Origin: Candidatus Omnitrophota bacterium
GTDB taxonomy: Bacteria; Omnitrophota; Gorgyraeia; Zapsychrales; Zapsychraceae
DNA length: 64,000 bases
Reading direction: 5' to 3'
Assembly: GCA_035292445.1 (NCBI GenBank)
Contig: DATDQB010000024.1
Coordinates: 267 to 64,266 of the forward strand
The notes beneath the pieces are model-generated. The model made no database searches, was not told where the DNA came from, and saw nothing but the letters and a program-made list of their open reading frames with translations. The position numbers were made by a program, and so were the translations under genes. This document shows, piece after piece, positions 3,001 through 57,243 of the stretch (within the stretch, counting starts at the first letter, position 1; every line of letters starts with the position of its first letter).

Positions 3001-6000
3001 ATGACAGATGCCGGCATCAATTGGTCCGATATCGGGGTCATGAGCGATTCCGATATTAATTGGACTGATCTCAGTGAAATGACTTCCCAAGGCATTAATT
3101 GGAGCGATATAGGCGTCATGAGCGATCAAGGGATCAATTGGAGCGACATTGAAGAAATGAGCACTCAAGGGATCAATTGGTCTGACATTGGGGCAATGTC
3201 CACAGCAGATATCAATTGGACGAACATCGGCGATCTTTCTTCAGCCGGCATCAATTGGGATGAGATCGGCGTTATGGCAGAGGCCGGCGTCAATTGGAAT
3301 GACCTAACGGCTTTGACCGAAGCCGGCATCAACTGGTCGGATATCGGCGTGATGAGCGATCAAGGCATCAACTGGTCTGACATCGGCGTCATGAGCGATC
3401 AAGGCATCAATTGGTCTGACATTGGGGCAATGTCCACAGCAGATATCAATTGGACGAACATCGGCGATCTTTCTTCAGCCGGCATCAACTGGGATGAGAT
3501 CGGCGTTATGGCAGAGGCCGGCGTCAATTGGAATGACCTAACGGCTTTGACCGAAGCCGGCATCAACTGGTCGGATATCGGTGTTATGAGTGAGTCCGAC
3601 ATCAATTGGTCTAATATCGGCGATCTCTCATCAGCCGGTATTAACTGGAATGATATTACGGCCATGACAGAGGCAGGTATCAACTGGTCGGATATCGGCG
3701 TCATGTCCGATCAAGGCATTAATTGGTCTGACATCGGCGTCATGAGCGATCAAGGCATCAATTGGTCTGACATTAACGTCATGTCCGATCAAGGCATCAA
3801 CTGGTCGGACATTGGGGTCATGAGCGATTCGGATATCAATTGGAGCAGTATTGGTGATCTTTCTACAGCAGGCATTAATTGGGATGAAATTACTGCCATG
3901 ACAGAGGCAGGTATCAACTGGTCGGATATCGGTGTCATGTCAGAGCAAGGCATCAACTGGTCGGATATCGGCGTCATGTCCGATCAAGGCATTAATTGGT
4001 CTGACATCGGCGTCATGAGTGATTCCGACATCAACTGGTCTGACATTGGGGCAATGTCCACAGCAGATATCAATTGGACGAACATCGGCGATCTTTCTTC
4101 AGCCGACATCAACTGGGATGAGATCAATGCCATGACCGAAGCCGGCATCAATTGGAGCGACATAGGCGTCATGACCGAGCAAGGCATCAACTGGAGCGAT
4201 ATAGGCGTCATGAGCGATTCCGACATCAACTGGTCGGATATCGGCGTCATGAGCGATTCCGACATCAACTGGTCTGACATTGGGGCAATGTCCACAGCAG
4301 ATATCAATTGGTCTAATATCGGCGACCTCTCATCAGCCGGCATCAACTGGGATGAGATCAACACCATGACCGAAGCCGGCATCAATTGGAGCGACATAGG
4401 CGTCATGACCGAGCAAGGCATCAACTGGAGCGATATAGGCGTCATGAGCGATTCCGACATCAACTGGTCGGATATCGGTGTCATGTCCGAGCAAGGCATC
4501 AACTGGAGCGATATAGGCGTCATGAGCGATTCCGACATCAACTGGTCGGATATCGGTGTCATGTCCGATCAAGGCATCAACTGGTCTGACATTGACATTA
4601 TGTCTGACCAAGGGATCAACTGGTCTGACATTGACATTATGTCCGACCAAGGGATTAATTGGTCGGATATCGGTGTCATGTCCGATCAAGGCATCAACTG
4701 GTCAGACATTGACATCATGTCCGATCAAGGCATCAACTGGTCGGATATCGGGGTGATGAGTTCTCAAGGCGTCAATTGGACTAGTATCGGTGATCTCTCA
4801 ACGGCCGGTATCAATTGGAACGATATTGACATCATGTCCGATCAAGGCATCAACTGGTCGGATATCGGGGTGATGAGCGGCCAGGGCATCAACTGGTCGG
4901 ATATTGGGGTGATGAGCTCGCAAGGCATCAATTGGAGCGATATCGATATTATGAGCGATGCCGGCATCAACTGGTCAGACATTGACATCATGTCCGATCA
5001 AGGCATCAACTGGTCGGATATCGGGGTGATGAGTTCTCAAGGCGTCAATTGGACTAGTATCGGGGACCTTTCAACGGCCGGTATCAATTGGAACGATATT
5101 GACATCATGTCCGAGCAAGGCATCAACTGGTCGGATATCGGGGTGATGAGCGGCCAGGGCATCAACTGGTCGGATATTGGGGTCATGAGCGATTCCGACA
5201 TTAACTGGACCGATCTAAGTGAAATGACTTCCCAAGGCATCAACTGGTCGGATATGGCGGAGATGACCACCGCTGACATCAACTGGTCGGATATCGGGGT
5301 GATGAGCGATCAAGGCATCAACTGGAGCGACATAGGCGTGATGAGTGAAACCGGCATCAACTGGAGCGATATCGGGGAAATGACCACCTCCGGCATTAAT
5401 TGGGATAATATTCAAGACATGACGACGACCGGCATCAACTGGGATGATATCGGCGCGATGGCTTCATCCGGCATCAACTGGACTGATATGGCGGAGATGA
5501 CCACCGCTGACATCAACTGGAGCGATATCGGTGTCATGTCCGATCAAGGCATCAATTGGAGTGATATCGGCATAATGAGTGAAGCAGGCATCAACTGGAG
5601 TGATATTGGGGAAATGAGCGCCTCCGGCATCAACTGGGACAATATCGGAGATATGTCAACGGCGGGCATCAACTGGGAAGATATAACTGTAATGACAACC
5701 CGTGGAATAAATTGGGATGAGATCGGCGTCCTGTCTGATGCGGGTGTTAATTGGGATAATATTTCGGATCTTTCAACAGCGGGGGTGAACTGGGACGGCA
5801 TCAACGACATGACAGAAGCGAACATTAATTGGGACAATGTTGCGGAAATGTCAACAACAGGCATCAATTGGAGCGATATCGGCGTGATGAGCGAATCCGG
5901 CATCAACTGGGGCGATATCAATATCATGAGCGATGCCGGCATTAATTGGGCTGATATAGGCGAGCTCAGTGCCTCAGGCATCAACTGGTCGGATATCGGG

Positions 6001-29502: not shown

Positions 29503-29505
29503 TAT

Positions 29506-29536
29506 TTGTCCTAGTTTGTCCTATATTGTCCTAGTA
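29506..29536. repeat. Three direct copies of TTGTCCTA(G/T)
   Basis: tttgtcctag tttgtcctat attgtcctag directly after the DUF393 stop. Confidence 0.7.
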
Positions 29537-29755: not shown

Positions 29756-29820
29756 TGTCATATTGTGTCCTATTATGTCCTATTATGTCATATTGACAGA
29801 AAATAAGTGTTGTCCTAATA
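29756..29820. repeat. Four more TGTC(C/A)TA copies overlapping the promoter of the PEP-CTERM gene
   Basis: tgtcatattgtgtcctattatgtcctattatgtcatattgacag...tgttgtcctaat. Confidence 0.7.
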
Positions 29821-31595: not shown

Positions 31596-31839
31596 AATGG
31601 GCTTAAGGAAACGAAATTGGCTTTTTGGCACACGATATTCTATACTTAAAATGAGACGTAAAAAGCAATTTGACGATAAGGGCAAACCAGGAGTAATCCT
31701 GGGACGCAAAACTATCCCGACGTTTTCTCAGAACGAATTAAGAGGAAGTCGGGACCCCGACCGAAGCGTCGGGGCAGGGTCCTTAAACAAGGATAGCCAG
31801 GTGCCGAATCAAATGTTAAGAAAGATCACATATGAGATG

Positions 31840-37249: not shown

Positions 37250-37322
37250 TGGGCCATGCAGGACTCGAACCTGCCACCCAGTGATTAAGAGTCACTTGCT
37301 CTACCAGATGAGCTAATGGCCC
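37250..37322 (-). tRNA. tRNA-Lys (anticodon CTT)
   Basis: The reverse complement folds as a cloverleaf: acceptor GGGCCAT/ATGGCCC, D stem GCTC/GAGC, anticodon stem AGTGA/TCACT with loop CTCTTAA, T loop TTCGAGT. No encoded CCA. Confidence 0.85.
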
Positions 37323-37370
37323 GGAGGGTGATATTTATAACAAACTTTAAGGACGCTGTAAAGACATTTA

Positions 37371-37400
37371 AGCAGTAAGTCGTAAGCGGTAAGCGGTAAG
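37371..37400. repeat. Left arm (GTAAGC-unit tandem) of the inverted repeat flanking the four-helix-bundle gene
   Basis: agcagtaagtcgtaagcggtaagcggtaag. Complementary to 37826-37857 (cgcttactacttactgcttacagcttattgct). Confidence 0.7.
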
Positions 37401-37458
37401 TTTTTTAAAAAAAGGTTCATCCCCCTCATAAACAAGAATAAATAAACAGGAGGGGAAA

Positions 37459-37824
37459 ATGAAAGTAAAAACGTTTCAAGATTTGGTTGTTTGGCAAAAA
37501 GCACATGCATTTGTTTTAGAAGTGTATAAATTGACGAGACAATTTCCAGAGGAAGAACGGTTTGGGGTAACTACTCAGGTGCGCAGATCATCTGTTTCAA
37601 TTTGCGCAAATATAGTTGAAGGCTATAAAAAGAGCGATAGAGAGTTTTTAAGGTTTTTAGATATATCCCAAGCCTCGTTAGAAGAAACAAAATATCATTT
37701 AATTTTAAGTAAGGACTTAGGGTACTGTTTGCACAATACGTTCAATGAATTAACGGAAATATGTGATGAGTTGGGTAGAATGATAAATGGATTAATGAGA
37801 GCAATTAGAGCAAGCAAAACTTAA
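37459..37824 (+). CDS. Four-helix-bundle protein (TIGR02436 family, formerly called 23S rRNA intervening-sequence protein)
   Basis: LVVWQKAHAFVLEVYKLTRQFPEEERFGVTTQVRRSSVSICANIVEGYKK is the family signature. The gene is AT-rich and sits inside an inverted-repeat hairpin. Confidence 0.8.
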   Translation: MKVKTFQDLVVWQKAHAFVLEVYKLTRQFPEEERFGVTTQVRRSSVSICANIVEGYKKSDREFLRFLDISQASLEETKYHLILSKDLGYCLHNTFNELTEICDELGRMINGLMRAIRASKT

Positions 37825-37825
37825 C

Positions 37826-37857
37826 GCTTACTACTTACTGCTTACAGCTTATTGCTC
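37826..37857. repeat. Right arm of the inverted repeat flanking the four-helix-bundle gene
   Basis: See the left arm at 37371-37400. Confidence 0.7.
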
Positions 37858-37877
37858 AAATGGCTTGAAGGAGGAAT

Positions 37878-38693
37878 ATGGCTTCTATTAATATTGAGGA
37901 GTTTAAAAGTTTAGCCAAAGATTTCCGTAAACAAATCCTCGAAGTGACGCATGCCGCCGGAAGCGGCCATCCCGGAGGTTCCCTCTCGGCCGTTGAAATT
38001 CTTATAAGCTTATATGGCTATAAAATGAAACATAATCCCAAAGATCCAACCTGGGATGATCGGGACCGGCTGATCATCTCCAAAGGCCATTGCACACCGG
38101 TGGCGTATGTAACCTTAGCCAACTATGGGTATTTCCCCAAAGAGGAACTGAAAAGTTTCAGGAAATTAGGCAGCCGTTTGCAGGGCCATGTTCATATTTA
38201 TGCACCGGGGATTGAATTTAATACGGGTTCGTTGGGGCATGGTTTATCGGTTGCCAATGGCTGTGCGCTGGGCGCACGCCTGCGTCAAAAGAATTTCAAA
38301 GTCTATTGTCTGTTGGGCGACGGGGAATTGCAGGAAGGCTCCGTTTGGGAGGCGGCGATGAACGCGTCTCACCAGAAATTGGATAATATTTGCGCTATTG
38401 TCGATTACAACAAAGTCCAGCAGAACGGGCCCGTCAATGAGATCAAAAATTTGGAACCATTGGCGAAGCGTTGGGAAAGTTTCGGTTGGGAAGTGGAAGA
38501 GATCGATGGCCACGATTTCAATCAGCTTATGAAAGCGTTGGATAAATTCGATTCGGTTAAAGGCAAGCCTTATATGATCATCGCCAATACCTTAAAAGGC
38601 AAGGGCGTTTCGTTTATGGAATTGAATCCGGCGTGGCATGGCAAGGCGCCGAATGATGAAGAATTAAAGAAAGCGTTGGCGGAATTGAAATAA
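37878..38693 (+). CDS. Transketolase, N-terminal (thiamine-diphosphate-binding) subunit of a split enzyme
   Basis: HAAGSGHPGGSLS, GHCTP, GSLGHGLS, LLGDGELQEGSVWEA. Confidence 0.9.
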   Translation: MASINIEEFKSLAKDFRKQILEVTHAAGSGHPGGSLSAVEILISLYGYKMKHNPKDPTWDDRDRLIISKGHCTPVAYVTLANYGYFPKEELKSFRKLGSRLQGHVHIYAPGIEFNTGSLGHGLSVANGCALGARLRQKNFKVYCLLGDGELQEGSVWEAAMNASHQKLDNICAIVDYNKVQQNGPVNEIKNLEPLAKRWESFGWEVEEIDGHDFNQLMKALDKFDSVKGKPYMIIANTLKGKGVSFMELNPAWHGKAPNDEELKKALAELK

Positions 38694-38696
38694 CAA

Positions 38697-38759
38697 TGTA
38701 GGGGCGGGCCTTGCGTCCGCCCAGAAGATATTGGGCAACCGCAAGGGGTTGCCCCTACA
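38697..38759 (+). ncRNA. Structured intergenic element: 9-bp outer stem enclosing two GC-rich hairpins (three-way junction) between the transketolase halves
   Basis: tgtaggggc[gggcgg-gccttgcgt-ccgccc]agaagatatt[gggcaacc-gcaagg-ggttgccc]ctaca. Outer stem tgtaggggc/gcccctaca. Confidence 0.45.
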
Positions 38760-41850: not shown

Positions 41851-43326
41851 ATGGACCCTTGGCGTCATTTAAAAAACCTTAATAAAAGCCAAATCACCGA
41901 GCTTCAGAATAAGAAGCTGCGCGATTTTATCCGCCACTACGTTTATCCCTTCAGCCCTCATTACAGAAAAATTTTTGATGACAATAAGATCGATCCGGAA
42001 TCTATCAAGACAGCCGATGATCTAAGGCGCGTCCCGTTCATTTCAAAGAAGGATTTCCTGGAGAATGAAACAAAATTCCGCGATTGCGTTTTGCAACCCG
42101 ATGCCCAGAAGATCAAAAAATTTTGGAACGCCTCGCGCCTGACCAAGTTCATTTTTGAAAGAACTTTTAAAGGGAAAGAGTACGTTGAGCATAAACTCGG
42201 CTTTGAATTCCGCCCTGTTTTCATGACCTTCACCGGCGGCACGACCAACCAGCCCGTTGTGTTCCTTTATACCAATTACGACATCCAGAACCTGCATACC
42301 TCCGGCGCCCGGATGGTGAATTTATTCGACATCAAACCGGATGAAAGGATCGTCAATATATTCCCTTACGCGCCGCATCTGGCCTTTTGGCAGGTCGTCT
42401 TCGGCGCCTTCGCTTCCAACGTCATGGCGCTCAGTACCGGCGGCGGAAAGACCATCGGCACCGAGGGCAACATCAAAGCGCTTTTGAGGATGAAGCCCAG
42501 CGTCGTCATGGGCGTCCCCAGTTATGTTTATCACGTCTTTCGCACGGCGCGCGAGCAGGGATGCAAAATGGATTTTGTCAAAAAGGTCGTTTTGGGGGCC
42601 GCGCGGGTGACGGTCGCTTTCAAGCAAAAGTTGGCCGAGATCATAGAAGGGATGGGGGCCAGGGACGTTGCCATTTTCGGGACGTACGGCTTTACGGAAG
42701 CGCGTTGCGCTTGGGCGGAAAGCCCATCGCCGTTGGATGTCTCAAGCGGGTATCATCTTTACCCGGACAAAGAGATCTTCGAGGTGATCGACCCTGAGAC
42801 AGGAGAGGTCAAGAAAGAAGGCGAAGACGGAGAATTGGTATATACGGGGCTCGATGCCCGCGGCAGCGTGATGTTGCGTTATCGCACGGGGGACTTTGTC
42901 AAAGGCGGGATCACCTACGCCCCGTCAAAATATTCCCGTTTAAGCGTTCCGCGCATTTCAAGCGACATCACCCGGTTATCCGATGTCAAGGACCTGCAGT
43001 TCTCCAAAGTCAAAGGGGCTCTTATGAATTTCAGCGTTTTTCCCGCTTTGTTCTCGGAGATCAAAGCGATCGATGAATGGCAGATCGAGCTTAAGAAAAG
43101 GAACAATGACCCCTTTGATATGGATGAAATGGTCATTTACGCCACCATCAAGAACCATAACAACCCGGACAAGTTGAAAGAGGAAATTAAAAGCAGGATG
43201 GTGGCGGTGACGGAAGTATCGCCCAATGAGATCCATTTCATCGGCATGGATGAGATGGTGAAGCGCCTGGAGCTTGAGACCGCGAATAAGGAAAGAAGGA
43301 TTTTGGATAACAGGCCGAAGTCGTGA
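41851..43326 (+). CDS. Adenylate-forming enzyme, phenylacetate-CoA ligase (PaaK) / coenzyme F390 synthetase-like family
   Basis: FTGGTTNQPVVF (variant of the AMP-binding TSGTTGxP motif), YGFTEA, PaaK-like length. The track ORF starts at 41767, but its first 28 codons lie in the AT-rich repeat region, so I used ATG 41851. Confidence 0.65.
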   Translation: MDPWRHLKNLNKSQITELQNKKLRDFIRHYVYPFSPHYRKIFDDNKIDPESIKTADDLRRVPFISKKDFLENETKFRDCVLQPDAQKIKKFWNASRLTKFIFERTFKGKEYVEHKLGFEFRPVFMTFTGGTTNQPVVFLYTNYDIQNLHTSGARMVNLFDIKPDERIVNIFPYAPHLAFWQVVFGAFASNVMALSTGGGKTIGTEGNIKALLRMKPSVVMGVPSYVYHVFRTAREQGCKMDFVKKVVLGAARVTVAFKQKLAEIIEGMGARDVAIFGTYGFTEARCAWAESPSPLDVSSGYHLYPDKEIFEVIDPETGEVKKEGEDGELVYTGLDARGSVMLRYRTGDFVKGGITYAPSKYSRLSVPRISSDITRLSDVKDLQFSKVKGALMNFSVFPALFSEIKAIDEWQIELKKRNNDPFDMDEMVIYATIKNHNNPDKLKEEIKSRMVAVTEVSPNEIHFIGMDEMVKRLELETANKERRILDNRPKS

Positions 43327-43392
43327 ATCGTGGATCGTAGATCGCGAATCGTGGATCTTTGACGAACCACGATCCACAATGCACGATCCACG
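43327..43392. repeat. Intergenic inverted repeat built from CGTGGATC units, no cargo
   Basis: atcgtggatcgtagatcgcgaatcgtggatc ... gaaccacgatccacaatgcacgatccacga. Confidence 0.7.
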
Positions 43393-43405
43393 AGAAGGAT
43401 AAATT

Positions 43406-44692: not shown

Positions 44693-44708
44693 AAAAGGAG
44701 TATCGAGT

Positions 44709-44775
44709 CGTAAGCCATAAGCTGTAAGCCTTAAAAAAAATTTAAAGCTTACGGCTTAAAGCTTACGGCTTAAGG
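44709..44775. repeat. Intergenic inverted repeat built from GTAAGC/GCTTAC units, no cargo
   Basis: cgtaagccataagctgtaagcc-ttaaaaaaaatttaaa-gcttacggcttaaagcttacggcttaagg. Confidence 0.7.
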
Positions 44776-44781
44776 CTAAAT

Positions 44782-50680: not shown

Positions 50681-50761
50681 AGTCATCAGTCATCAGCCGT
50701 CAGTCTTCAGAAGTTATCGGGCTGACAGTTTCTGACGACTGAAGACTGAAGACGGACGACT
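50681..50761. repeat. Intergenic inverted repeat built from GTCATCAG/GTCTTCAG units, no cargo
   Basis: agtcatcagtcatcagccgtcagtcttcag ... ctgacgactgaagactgaagacggacgac. Confidence 0.65.
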
Positions 50762-54701: not shown

Positions 54702-56747
54702 ATGAAATTCAATAAACCAATCCGTGCCGGTACCCGCGGTAGCCTCCTCGCCCTTAAGCAGGTTGAAGAAATCATACGTCTGGTGTCTGTCCCCCCGTCT
54801 GTCCCCTTTAAAGTGGTTATTTTCGATACCAACGGTGATAAAGACAAAAAGACGCCCTTGACCGCACAGCTGCCCGATGATTTCTTCACCGATACGCTTG
54901 ATCAAGCCCTTTTAAAAAGAAAAATTGATGTCGCTGTCCATAGCGCCAAAGACCTGCCCCAAACGCTCGCCGAAGGCTTGTCCATTTTTGCGTTGACTGA
55001 ATCGGTGGATGACAGGGACGCTTTTGTGGGAGTCGTTCCCTTTAAAAAGCTTAAGGCGGGTTCCCGCGTCGGTACCAGCAGCCCCTTGCGCCAAAAAAGC
55101 GTGGAAGAATTGAACCCAAAGATAAACGCGGTCAGTATCCGCGGCACAATTGATGAGCGGCTGGCTCAATTTGATAAAGGTAAACTTGACGGTATCATCG
55201 TCGCGGCGTGCGCGCTTAAGCGTTTAGGCCTTAGCAAACGGATAACAGAAATTATGCCCTGGGAAGCGACACCCTTGCAGGGCCAATTGGCTGTTGTCGG
55301 AAGAAGCGATGACGCACATCTTCAAGAGATGTTTTCCTCGATCGATGCGCGGGCGCATTACGGGAAAGTGTATTTGGTCGGCGCCGGCCCGGGCGACAGC
55401 GAGCTCATCACGCTCAAGGGCATCAACGCTCTTAAGCAGGCGGATGTTGTTTTTTACGACTATCTGATCAATAAAGAACTTTTGCGGCATGCCCAAAAGG
55501 CCCAGAAAATTTATGTCGGCAAACGAAAGGGAGCGCATACCCTACCTCAAAGCGAGCTTAATAAGCTCATCAAGGATAAGGCAGTGGCCGGCAAGAGCGT
55601 TGTCCGCCTCAAAGGAGGCGATCCGCTTGTTTTCGGCCGCGGCGGCGATGAGATCGGTTATTTAAGAAGCTATCATATCGAAGTTGAGGTCGTCCCGGGC
55701 GTGAGCTCCGCGACCGGCATCCCTTCGGGACTGGGTATTCCTTTGACCGCGCGCGGGGTGAGCGATTCGGTCGCCTTCGTAAGCGGCCACAGCGAAGGGG
55801 AGTCCCAAGGAAAAAAAAAGAGGATACAGATCCCCAAGGCGCAAACGCTTATTTTTTTGATGGGGCTTACGAAACTTAAAGAAATCGTTGCACAATTGAC
55901 GCGCCAGGGGTGGAAGAAGCAAACGCCTGTCATCGTTGTTTCCAAGGGGACATTCCCCGATGAAAGGATCGTTGCCGGCTCACTGGAGGACATCATTAAG
56001 AAAACAAAGAGCGAAAAATTACTGCCGCCGGCTTTGATCATGGTGGGGGAAACCATCCATTCTTACCGTCCCCGCCAAAAGAGGTCCAAAACGGTCCTTT
56101 ATACCGGCACCAACCCGCAAAAATACAAACGCCTGGGCAAGCTTGTCCATCTTCCCATGATCGAGATCACCCCGGTTGAATTCACAAGAAACAAGAGGAT
56201 CTCTTTTCTCAAAGCGTTTCAGGCCTCCGATATGGTCCTTTTAACGAGCCGCTTCGCGGTGCGCTTTCTTTTTGATATATTGAAAAAAGAAAGGATTGGT
56301 GCGCGATCGCTGCAGGATAAGCCATTTATCACGATCGGCCGGGAAACGGCCCGCGAGCTCATCGGCCACGGCATTACACCAGAGTTGACAGCTCAGGAGG
56401 AATCGAGTGTCGGCTTGTGGAAGGAGATGAGAAAGAAATATCAGCTTAACGGTAAACGTATCCTTTTTCCGCGCTCGGCGCTTCCCAATCCTTATTTGAA
56501 GCAAGCGTTACGCAAAGCTGGTGCTATCGTTAAAGAAATAACGGTTTACCAGAATCGAATGCCAAAAAAACGTAAATTGCCCCGCGTTTCAATTGATGAG
56601 GTCATCTTCACAAGCCCATCGACGGTCAATAATTTCCTTAAAAGTTACGGGACGATCCCACGTATATGGAGGATCAAAAGCCGGGGGGAGCTCACGAGGC
56701 GAAGTTTAGAAAAGGCGGGGTTTGAGAGTGAAATTATCAAGTATTAA
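54702..56747 (+). CDS. Tetrapyrrole biosynthesis fusion: HemC-like N-domains (porphobilinogen deaminase domains 1-2, no domain 3), uroporphyrinogen-III C-methyltransferase (CobA/SUMT), then uroporphyrinogen-III synthase (HemD)
   Basis: The track ORF starts at 54606 inside the repeat element, so I used ATG 54702 (MKFNKPIRAGTRGSLLALKQ, the HemC N-terminus). Then AVHSAKDLP, SIRGTIDERL, VYLVGAGPGD...GGDPLVFGRGGDE (SUMT), and a HemD-like C-terminal 240 aa. Confidence 0.75.
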   Translation: MKFNKPIRAGTRGSLLALKQVEEIIRLVSVPPSVPFKVVIFDTNGDKDKKTPLTAQLPDDFFTDTLDQALLKRKIDVAVHSAKDLPQTLAEGLSIFALTESVDDRDAFVGVVPFKKLKAGSRVGTSSPLRQKSVEELNPKINAVSIRGTIDERLAQFDKGKLDGIIVAACALKRLGLSKRITEIMPWEATPLQGQLAVVGRSDDAHLQEMFSSIDARAHYGKVYLVGAGPGDSELITLKGINALKQADVVFYDYLINKELLRHAQKAQKIYVGKRKGAHTLPQSELNKLIKDKAVAGKSVVRLKGGDPLVFGRGGDEIGYLRSYHIEVEVVPGVSSATGIPSGLGIPLTARGVSDSVAFVSGHSEGESQGKKKRIQIPKAQTLIFLMGLTKLKEIVAQLTRQGWKKQTPVIVVSKGTFPDERIVAGSLEDIIKKTKSEKLLPPALIMVGETIHSYRPRQKRSKTVLYTGTNPQKYKRLGKLVHLPMIEITPVEFTRNKRISFLKAFQASDMVLLTSRFAVRFLFDILKKERIGARSLQDKPFITIGRETARELIGHGITPELTAQEESSVGLWKEMRKKYQLNGKRILFPRSALPNPYLKQALRKAGAIVKEITVYQNRMPKKRKLPRVSIDEVIFTSPSTVNNFLKSYGTIPRIWRIKSRGELTRRSLEKAGFESEIIKY

Positions 56748-56803
56748 GATACAAGACACAAGAAACAAGGCCCAAGGAAGAAACAAAAACCAAATAACAA
56801 TTA
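56748..56803. repeat. Left arm of a ~55-bp inverted repeat (ACAAGAAACAAG units) flanking the second four-helix-bundle gene
   Basis: gatacaagacacaagaaacaagg...acaaaaaccaaataacaatt. Complementary to 57181-57243. Confidence 0.7.
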
Positions 56804-56819
56804 ACAATTAACGAAAGGG

Positions 56820-57179
56820 ATGGTTGCGATGGAACGGAAATTTGATTTGGAAGAAAGGACAACGAATTTTGCGAAAGGCGTGATTCAATTATGCAGGGAA
56901 TTACCAAGGGACCCGATTAATGATCGTTTGATGGGGCAGGTTGTTGGTTCAGCTGGTTCAGTAGGAGCTAATTATAGAGAGGCTAATGATGCATTGGGAA
57001 AGAAAGATTTTTTACAGAAAATCAAGATTGCGCGTAGGGAAGCCAAAGAAACGCAGCATTGGTTAACTTTGATCGCTGAGGCGAATGCAGCAAAAAGAAC
57101 TACAATAGTTCCTTTAATAGACGAAGTTGTGGAACTTAAGAAAATTCTATCATCAATAGCTATTAAATTAGAAAAATAA
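56820..57179 (+). CDS. Four-helix-bundle protein (TIGR02436 family), second copy
   Basis: NFAKGVIQLCRELPRD...GSAGSVGANYREANDALGKKDFLQKIKIARREAKETQHWL. AT-rich and inside an inverted-repeat hairpin. Confidence 0.8.
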   Translation: MVAMERKFDLEERTTNFAKGVIQLCRELPRDPINDRLMGQVVGSAGSVGANYREANDALGKKDFLQKIKIARREAKETQHWLTLIAEANAAKRTTIVPLIDEVVELKKILSSIAIKLEK

Positions 57180-57180
57180 G

Positions 57181-57243
57181 ATTATATTTGGTTATTGGTT
57201 TTTGTAATTTTCTTGTATCTTGTTTCTTGTATCTTGTTTCTTA
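57181..57243. repeat. Right arm of the inverted repeat flanking the second four-helix-bundle gene
   Basis: attatatttggttattggtttttgtaattttcttgtatcttgtttcttgtatcttgtttctt. Confidence 0.7.

Follow-up and report, generated by a model that had tools for sequence, protein, structure and literature searches.

A four-helix-bundle gene between tandem-heptamer arms upstream of a transketolase operon: a probable foldback cassette of the 23S rRNA intervening-sequence kind

Intervening sequences (IVSs) of rRNA that bear an open reading frame (ORF), and the S23p proteins, have been known since the 1990s. The IVS in the 23S rRNA of Coxiella burnetii contains an ORF of the S23p family and is closed by a 28-bp terminal stem that is cut by RNase III in vitro, with two to three GACAGAT heptamers upstream of the ORF, the copy number of which varies among strains (PMC4990558). 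Here, we compare such elements with a gene cassette, denoted W1, in a 64,000-nt stretch of DNA from Candidatus Omnitrophota bacterium (GenBank assembly GCA_035292445.1, contig DATDQB010000024.1, positions 267 to 64,266 of the forward strand; this whole analysed stretch is called the window below). W1 consists of a four-helix-bundle gene enclosed by two arms of tandem heptamers and lies between tRNA-Lys(CTT) and tktN, upstream of a transketolase operon; the window contains a second cassette, W2. By its sequence, the cassette is built like a genuine IVS yet lies outside rRNA. An initial annotation of this DNA had likened the locus to the hairpin insertions of 23S rRNA, and the stem and heptamers of the Coxiella IVS bear out that likeness (PMC4990558).

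The window cassettes share with the 23S IVSs of Coxiella burnetii, Leptospira and others a protein of the PF05635 family, a size of ~430-500 nt and terminal inverted repeats that form a long stem around the ORF; in W1, as in Coxiella, tandem heptamers are located in the arm upstream of the ORF. The differences concern the surroundings and the fate of the transcript. Instead of an rRNA helix, the window cassettes occupy spacers between protein-coding genes, the flanks being tRNA-Lys and tktN in the case of W1 and hemCD and hemL in the case of W2. Excision by RNase III has been shown only for the rRNA copies, and cleavage within an mRNA would split the transcript, whereas rRNA fragments stay together in the ribosome. 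Thus, the IVS-type element itself is known, and what is added here is a form outside rRNA with a family-wide tandem-heptamer foldback architecture, which links three subjects, namely, the intervening sequences of rRNA, a very large uncharacterised protein family and the heptamer repeats of intergenic DNA.

Heptamer arrays related to those of the cassettes include the short tandemly repeated repetitive (STRR) sequences of Nostoc and Calothrix and the TAACTGA arrays of Beggiatoaceae. In Xanthomonas, each genome contains ~185 arrays of the heptamer GGGAATC, mostly of four units, among which there are 70-75 convergent pairs (Rehm et al. 2015, PMC4692102). The same study reported an excess of heptameric simple repeats in the intergenic DNA of bacteria, for which it proposed slippage as the origin, and its text mentions neither the four-helix-bundle gene family nor accB, accC or biotin (PMC4692102). 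The GGGAATC pairs resemble the window cassettes in that both are intergenic, with tandem 7-nt units in about four copies arranged as convergent, hairpin-capable pairs between co-oriented genes. The difference is that the GGGAATC type was published as G-quadruplex-forming or regulatory simple repeats, unlinked to four-helix-bundle genes. The W1 and W2 units (TAAGCGG and AAGAYAC, respectively) have no GGG runs, and because the W1 unit, here in the phase GTAAGCG, lacks G-tracts, quadruplex formation is not general. In full-text searches of the literature, subscription-only papers being outside their reach, the description of the Coxiella IVS was the one paper found that connects heptamer arrays with genes for S23p or four-helix-bundle proteins.

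The W1 product is 100% identical to the NCBI entry [quoted passage not shown]. It matches PF05635 (E 3.6e-39, 133.7 bits; cut-off 33.8) and TIGR02436 (E 5.3e-38, 129.6 bits; cut-off 24) as well as PF22296 (E 5.5e-12). These matches, the AGGAGG ahead of the start codon and the 83% complementarity of the arms uphold the initial annotation of a 121-aa TIGR02436 gene with its own ribosome-binding site inside an inverted-repeat hairpin. In searches with PADLOC, the cassette proteins had no match, and in phage genomes no homologue of the four-helix-bundle protein was found.

The two arms of W1 (37369-37404 and 37816-37851) measure 36 nt each and contain a 25-nt core that is 92% complementary. Tandem Repeats Finder (TRF) reports both as arrays of period 7, TAAGCGG in 4.6 copies at 37369-37400 and GCTTACT in 4.4 copies at 37826-37856. 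A repeat search extends the inverted repeat to 37361-37400 and 37827-37866, and the RNA fold adds an outer stem that joins 37345-37351 to 37864-37870 and in which 37365-37369 finds its partner immediately beyond the right array. W1 attains a best gapless inverted-repeat score of 19, compared with a mean of 7.7 and a maximum of 10 in shuffles, and the 541-nt region, folded as RNA, has a long-range closing stem in both the minimum free energy (MFE) and the centroid folds (z = -4.0). The sequence GTAAGCGGTAAG, with at most two mismatches, occurs 16 times in the window compared to 2.6 occurrences expected, a number that was reached in none of 100 shuffles. The TAA stop codon of the ORF falls within the first unit of the right arm. 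This arm ends 8-20 nt before the ATG of tktN (37878), so that it covers the first part of the Shine-Dalgarno sequence of tktN.

The AT-richness noted in the initial annotation is pronounced. The cassette has a GC content of 0.35, and its ORF a GC content at third codon positions (GC3) of 0.30, compared with a GC content of 0.47-0.52 and a GC3 of 0.53-0.65 in the neighbouring genes. Because six independent metagenome contigs carry the locus with identical DNA over the cassette, W1 is not an assembly artefact; among these contigs, in which the protein is identical, the arms show no strain variation. The initial annotation had further proposed a comparison with orthologous loci, and these loci lack the cassette. 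In three relatives (L138, L140 and L141), in which tktN is 79-88% identical to that of the window, tRNA-Lys(CTT) precedes tktN on the same strand, at a distance of 28-58 nt from the ATG and without a cassette. In the window, W1 is placed between the two, and tRNA-Lys is inverted relative to its orientation in the relatives. Since the tRNA-Lys of the relatives adjoins tktN without a cassette, the W1 copy is an AT-rich insertion.

The second cassette of the window, W2 (56746-57243), has the unit AAGAYAC/TCTTGTW and is inserted between the hemC/cobA/hemD fusion gene and hemL. Its closing stem comprises ~60 bp (z = -4.2, in MFE and centroid folds), and its protein matches PF05635 (E 1e-17, 64.7 bits) and TIGR02436 (E 6e-22, 77.9 bits), in both cases above the curated cut-offs. 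W2 was found via its repeats; a phmmer search of the window ORFs with the W1 protein missed it because the two proteins are only 21% identical. Three more hairpins of the same build carry no gene (Table 1), and one of these, at 44708-44777, shares the GTAAGCN unit with W1. Each of the five hairpins of the window occupies the interval from the stop codon of one plus-strand gene to the ATG of the following gene, with the right arm ending 4-20 nt before that ATG. No T-run follows any of the five, which is why they are not terminators, and the terminator scan is negative at the arms; the repeats, which are located within operons a short way ahead of the following start codon, are thus not the ordinary terminators that would have refuted the initial annotation. 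None of the window hairpins belongs to an Rfam family, and Rfam finds no rRNA in the window. The degenerate hairpins were missed by a strict array-pair detector, which was replaced by TRF combined with flank-to-flank alignment. The initial annotation overlooked both the gene-less hairpins of the same build and the tandem-heptamer design of the arms that is common to the family.

Table 1. Cassettes W1 and W2, the gene-less hairpins and the adjacent tRNA gene in the window
Feature	Position	Strand	Sequence and properties	Evidence or relation to neighbours
tRNA-Lys(CTT)	37250-37322	-	neighbour, outside cassette W1	ARAGORN; Rfam 67 bits
W1, outer extension of closing stem	37345-37368	+		RNA fold of 37340-37880
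W1, left (5') arm	37369-37404	+	heptamers TAAGCAG TAAGTCG TAAGCGG TAAGCGG TAAG, then TTTT; purine-rich	repeat search, TRF, MFE and centroid folds
Shine-Dalgarno-like AGGAGG	37448-37453	+	in loop, outside arm	read from sequence; 5 nt before ATG of the four-helix-bundle gene
W1, four-helix-bundle gene	37459-37824	+	121 aa; TIGR02436/PF05635, Avd-like; GC 0.34, GC3 0.30	
W1, right (3') arm and outer stem extension	37816-37870	+	CTTAACG CTTACTA CTTACTG CTTACAG CTTATTG	
Gene-less hairpin	43321-43393	+	ATCGTGG / CCACGAT; z = -3.7	left arm holds upstream TGA; 12 nt before ATG 43406
Gene-less hairpin	44708-44777	+	GTAAGCC / GCTTACG; z = -8.0	4 nt before ATG 44782
Gene-less hairpin	50681-50761	+	AGTCATC / CTGAAGA; z = -3.8	6 nt before ATG 50768
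W2, left arm	56746-56769	+	AAGATAC AAGACAC AAGAAAC AAG	begins on stop codon of the hemC/cobA/hemD fusion gene
W2, four-helix-bundle gene	56820-57179	+	119 aa; GC3 0.32	21% identical to W1 protein
W2, right arm	57209-57243	+	TCTTGTA/TCTTGTT, 4.6 copies	ends 5 nt before hemL ATG (57248)

The combination of arms and gene is a family-wide architecture that occurs in short spacers, co-oriented with the host operon, and has gene-less counterparts. A profile of homologues, searched against one genome per species, yielded 80 loci from many phyla. The inverted-repeat score, defined as the best gapless match between the 200 nt upstream and the 150 nt downstream of the gene, is at least 15 at 40 of the 80 loci, with shuffle controls averaging 7-8; among the control ORFs of the same loci, such scores are found for 4 of 228, including the cassette itself and its immediate neighbours. 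According to TRF, arrays of equal period that are reverse complements of each other flank 58 of 91 genes on both sides (54 of 84 when redundancy is removed), and most of the remaining TIGR02436 genes surveyed have an array on one flank. The initial annotation had asked whether other TIGR02436 genes are hairpin-flanked; W2 is, and so are most of the homologues elsewhere. The period is 7 in 42 cases, 8 in eight, 10 in four, 9 in three and 11 in one, and the median copy number is 4.3 (interquartile range 3.5-4.9, range 2 to 23). The units vary from locus to locus (AGTAGCC, AGAAGTC, GGAGTAA, ATTAGGG, TCAGGCG and others), and at every locus the left arm is matched by a complementary right arm; locus-specific units with complementary arms are covariation on a large scale.

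The upstream gene is co-oriented with the surveyed gene at 65 of 73 loci and both neighbours are at 52 of 73, with short spacers (median gaps of 71 and 51 nt) that are largely occupied by the arms. On the coding strand, the 5' arm has a mean purine content of 0.72 (at least 0.6 in 42 of 54 arms and 0.4 or less in none of the 54), which implies a constraint tied to the direction of expression. Two simple roles for the arms were considered and rejected. Arms that provide stop codons in three frames, 7 being coprime with 3, would need a stop triplet in the unit, and one is present in only 32/54 left and 27/54 right units and in neither arm of W2. Arms that serve as repeated Shine-Dalgarno sites are likewise a poor fit, given that GGAG, GAGG or AGGA is found in only 18/54 left units; Shine-Dalgarno-like units are characteristic of a large AGGAGTC clade and are not seen in W1 or W2.

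Foreign composition, plasmid copies, closely similar proteins in different phyla and the correlation between proteins and units all point to horizontal spread of the arms and the gene as a single unit. Proteins that are 70-81% identical and have arms of the AGGAGTC/AGAATTC type are encoded in Verrucomicrobiota, Victivallales, Geobacteraceae, Nitrospirota, Clostridia, Acidobacteriota and cyanobacteria. Nostoc punctiforme and Trichormus variabilis carry the gene on conjugative plasmids, where it lies between 5-8 copies of CAGGAGT/CAGAATT and copies of CTGACTC/CTGAATT, and a Calothrix plasmid carries a cassette with GTTAGCT/AGCTAAA arms. Across the survey, the identity of the proteins and the similarity of their units are correlated (Spearman -0.32, Mantel p < 0.0005).

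We therefore favour, with a probability of roughly 0.6, the view that W1 represents a foldback cassette of the 23S-IVS kind that is widespread and is passed on horizontally, in this case as a copy that resides in the spacer upstream of the transketolase operon. Such a cassette would have no promoter of its own and would be transcribed together with the host genes; its two arms would then pair into a stem of 35-45 bp that closes off the insert. Because the stem would reunite the stop codon upstream of the insert with the start codon downstream of it, insertion would do little harm, and the same logic of harmless closing-off would allow the element to live in rRNA helices. By analogy with the Coxiella IVS, the stem is a likely substrate of RNase III. 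The protein, a putative pentamer, probably binds nucleic acid, may recognise the heptamer arrays and may have a part in spread or maintenance. Under this view, the IVS would be the rRNA-resident form of a much commoner cassette that is found in operon spacers of many phyla and on conjugative plasmids and that also has a gene-less form.

[quoted passage not shown] The Correia hairpins of Neisseria are cut by RNase III in operon mRNAs. The similarity lies in terminal inverted repeats that are built of sub-repeats, in the coexistence of gene-bearing and gene-less forms and in the location within transcribed intergenic DNA; as expected of elements of the foldback or MITE type, the cassette has terminal inverted repeats and is present or absent at orthologous sites. 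The difference is that neither a transposase nor a target-site duplication was found for the cassette and that each cassette lineage has its own unit in place of one conserved terminal repeat.

A further homologous locus is that of XCC0516 in Xanthomonas. Orthologues of this gene with the same GGGAATC unit are located between accB and accC in Xanthomonas, Stenotrophomonas, Dokdonella and Dyella (loci L144-L153). In Xanthomonas, the left arm reads GGGAATC GGGAGTG GAGAATC GGGAATC and the right arm, which stops precisely at the ATG of accC, CATTCCC CATTCTC GACTCCC TATTCCC. In all four genera, the arrays are of the GGGAATC/NATTCCC type, and the right arm directly adjoins this ATG, with no Shine-Dalgarno sequence. 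There is one clean compensatory pair, GGGAGTG/GACTCCC in Xanthomonas compared with GGGAATG/GATTCCC in the other genera of Xanthomonadales.

Several observations weigh against the favoured view. With regard to mobility, there is no transposase within 6 kb on either side of W1 and the cassette encodes no mobility enzyme; inspection showed no direct repeats at the borders of the W1 and W2 arms, the relatives being too diverged to define the exact ends. Furthermore, several genera of Xanthomonadales retain the cassette at a single site, which resembles a preserved function more than a merely selfish insertion. With regard to the RNA stem, the promoter and terminator scans around W1 and W2 placed nothing. 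Because tRNA-Lys is divergent, the tkt transcript must start within 37323-37877, and a start inside the cassette would preclude formation of the stem. Cleavage by RNase III at accC would leave this gene with a leaderless, poorly translatable message. Finally, the arm mismatches at 60 loci comprise 51 G.U and 48 A.C, that is, there is no excess of G.U and hence no signature of selection on a sense RNA, so that a role of the palindrome at the DNA level is equally compatible with the data.

A tentative alternative, which can coexist with the foldback-cassette view, is that the arrays are the protein's own binding sites: a homopentameric ring would bind about five tandem heptamers of one strand, in a TRAP-like fashion, so that the gene-bearing hairpins would be autonomous copies and the gene-less hairpins with the same unit would be targets acted upon in trans. 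The protein would then control hairpin formation, operon expression or propagation of the element. The homologue profile matches the PDB entries 2GSC (E 9e-25), the crystal structure of Xanthomonas XCC0516, and 2RLD (E 1.8e-22) over nearly the full length, and both were deposited with five chains, in line with the median of 4.3 copies in the survey and with the mostly four-unit arrays of Xanthomonas (PMC4692102). Units are also shared within a locus, the cassette arms and other arrays of the same locus having identical units in 12 of 52 cases compared with 1.2% across loci, and the recurrence of the W1 GTAAGCN unit in the gene-less hairpin at 44708 fits this pattern. In Xanthomonas, the XCC0516 orthologue lies inside one of the 70-75 convergent GGGAATC pairs, and across the genera of Xanthomonadales the sequence of the unit is conserved, beyond pairing alone. 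Protein similarity tracks unit similarity as well, which however could reflect co-inheritance.

Other observations speak against binding of the arrays by the protein. The copy number spans 2 to 23; many arrays in the same loci have unrelated units; and W1 shares its GTAAGC unit with another cassette, L124, despite a protein identity of 37%. The protein bAvd of diversity-generating retroelements (DGRs; PDB 4DWL) has a homologous four-helix-bundle fold and a pentameric assembly, and it is reported to bind nucleic acid without sequence specificity, which also counts against array recognition. The homology between bAvd and 2GSC has been discussed previously (PMC10053308). The window protein differs from bAvd in falling below the curated Avd cut-off, and the Avd genes of DGRs have not been described as enclosed by heptamer arms. 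The broadest form of the idea, in which S23p/Avd-like pentamers are sequence-specific array readers with one heptamer per subunit and form a pan-bacterial system of autonomous and non-autonomous foldback elements in rRNA helices and operon spacers, seems doubtful. If true, it would explain the origin of ORF-bearing rRNA IVSs, the function of the protein family and the excess of intergenic heptamers, such as the GGGAATC arrays of Xanthomonas and the STRR sequences of cyanobacteria. Xanthomonas XCC0516 is a testable system in a tractable organism, with a solved structure, a defined accB-accC site and a GGGAATC unit that is shared with ~70 gene-less hairpin pairs per genome.

The junction between tktN and tktC is informative on the insertion and mobility of elements of this build in related lineages. 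In 26 related loci, the spacer is 5-14 nt long, and in about eleven it contains gene-less tandem-heptamer hairpins of 89-182 nt, with a different unit in each. In L124 (tktN 81% identical), this junction holds a different four-helix-bundle cassette, with arms of AGTAAGC in 5.3 copies and CTGCTTA in 4.3 copies; this is the cassette with the same GTAAGC unit as W1 and a protein only 37% identical. In L140 (positions 3817-4360; tktN 79% identical), a GxxExxY gene (TIGR04256, PDDEXK_3; E 5.7e-38) lies between tktN and tktC, and either flank of this gene bears a ~20-nt repeat (GATTACACGGATTTT...) in three inverted copies. Thus, a second small-gene family, GxxExxY, appears to use a similar foldback cassette, of which this is the one case seen.

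The occurrence of quite different hairpin units in related lineages at this junction fits the possibility that the palindromes arise in place, by polymerase slippage and template switching, independently of the gene, the association with which would be a by-product if, for example, small genes survive best in such spacers. The excess of intergenic heptamers for which slippage was proposed (PMC4692102) and the variable copy number, both of the surveyed arrays and among Coxiella strains, are compatible with this origin. Nevertheless, it is improbable, given how strong and specific the association with the gene is (50% compared with less than 2% of the control ORFs). Moreover, the purine-rich 5' arm couples arm orientation to the gene, the gene has spread to different phyla and to plasmids in company with its arms, and the same design is found inside rRNA helices.

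The tRNA-Lys(CTT) that the initial annotation placed beside the cassette is confirmed by ARAGORN and Rfam, with 46 nt between its 5' end and the first heptamer of W1. Its proposed role as an integration hotspot for the cassette does not hold, however: at none of 60 homologous loci is there a tRNA within 1 kb of the gene, and the adjacency is incidental. A tRNA-targeted integrative element, or the edge of an island integrated at tRNA-Lys, is accordingly a highly improbable account of W1, even though the flank of tRNA-Lys is variable among the relatives, with integrase fragments in L138, and tRNA-Lys is inverted in the window. W2 is inserted between hemCD and hemL, there is no integrase within 6 kb on either side of W1, and W1 is on the tkt side of tRNA-Lys, opposite the variable side. 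That far side differs in every relative, and in L138 it contains fragments of a phage integrase, which suggests a separate turnover of islands at tRNA-Lys, involving an island that is different from and larger than the cassette.

Equally remote are two further readings, namely, that the repeats are an intrinsic terminator or attenuator of the ordinary sort and that the gene is what is left of a DGR, its Avd component. A stable stem beside gene ends and a weak match of the W1 protein to the DGR Avd model NF033474 (39.2 bits) could be cited for them. However, no T-run follows the arms, the terminator scan is empty there, 430-440 nt separate the two arms, after which the next gene starts, and the hairpins are found within operons, close ahead of a start codon. 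The Avd score does not reach the cut-off of 80, and no Pfam family of reverse transcriptases was recorded among the genes called in the 12-kb W1 locus, that is, within 6 kb on either side, template and variable repeats not having been searched for.

Many of the metagenome contigs that carry cassette genes or their neighbours are only 0.5-1 kb long, and some end inside a heptamer array. The L141 contig, for example, ends in a GTAAGCC/TTAAGCT array (897-926) just after tktN. Heptamer hairpins probably break short-read assemblies, which is of practical concern for metagenomes, and can readily be misread as simple repeats or terminators.

Other inserts at the tktN-tktC junction are of different types. 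In the window, the spacer is filled by a GC-rich nested palindrome (38698-38759; TGTAGGGGC ... GCCCCTACA) with two internal hairpins, which is not of the heptamer type, and in L134 the junction contains an unrelated 506-nt insert with another small ORF.

Elsewhere in the window, AT-rich intergenic DNA contains two arrays of 10-nt repeats ~250 nt apart, TTTGTCCTAG in three copies at 29505-29533 and TGTCCTATTA in four copies at 29756-29794, which may be binding sites. At 31671-31730 on the plus strand, the sequence matches RF01051, the aptamer of the c-di-GMP-I riboswitch, with 41.5 bits (gathering score 35). The first ~9000 nt of the window (1-~9000) are occupied by an ORF of more than 3000 aa that runs off the window start and consists of ~13-aa repeats, GINWxDIxxMT, with a period of 39 nt and higher-order periods of 78-390 nt.

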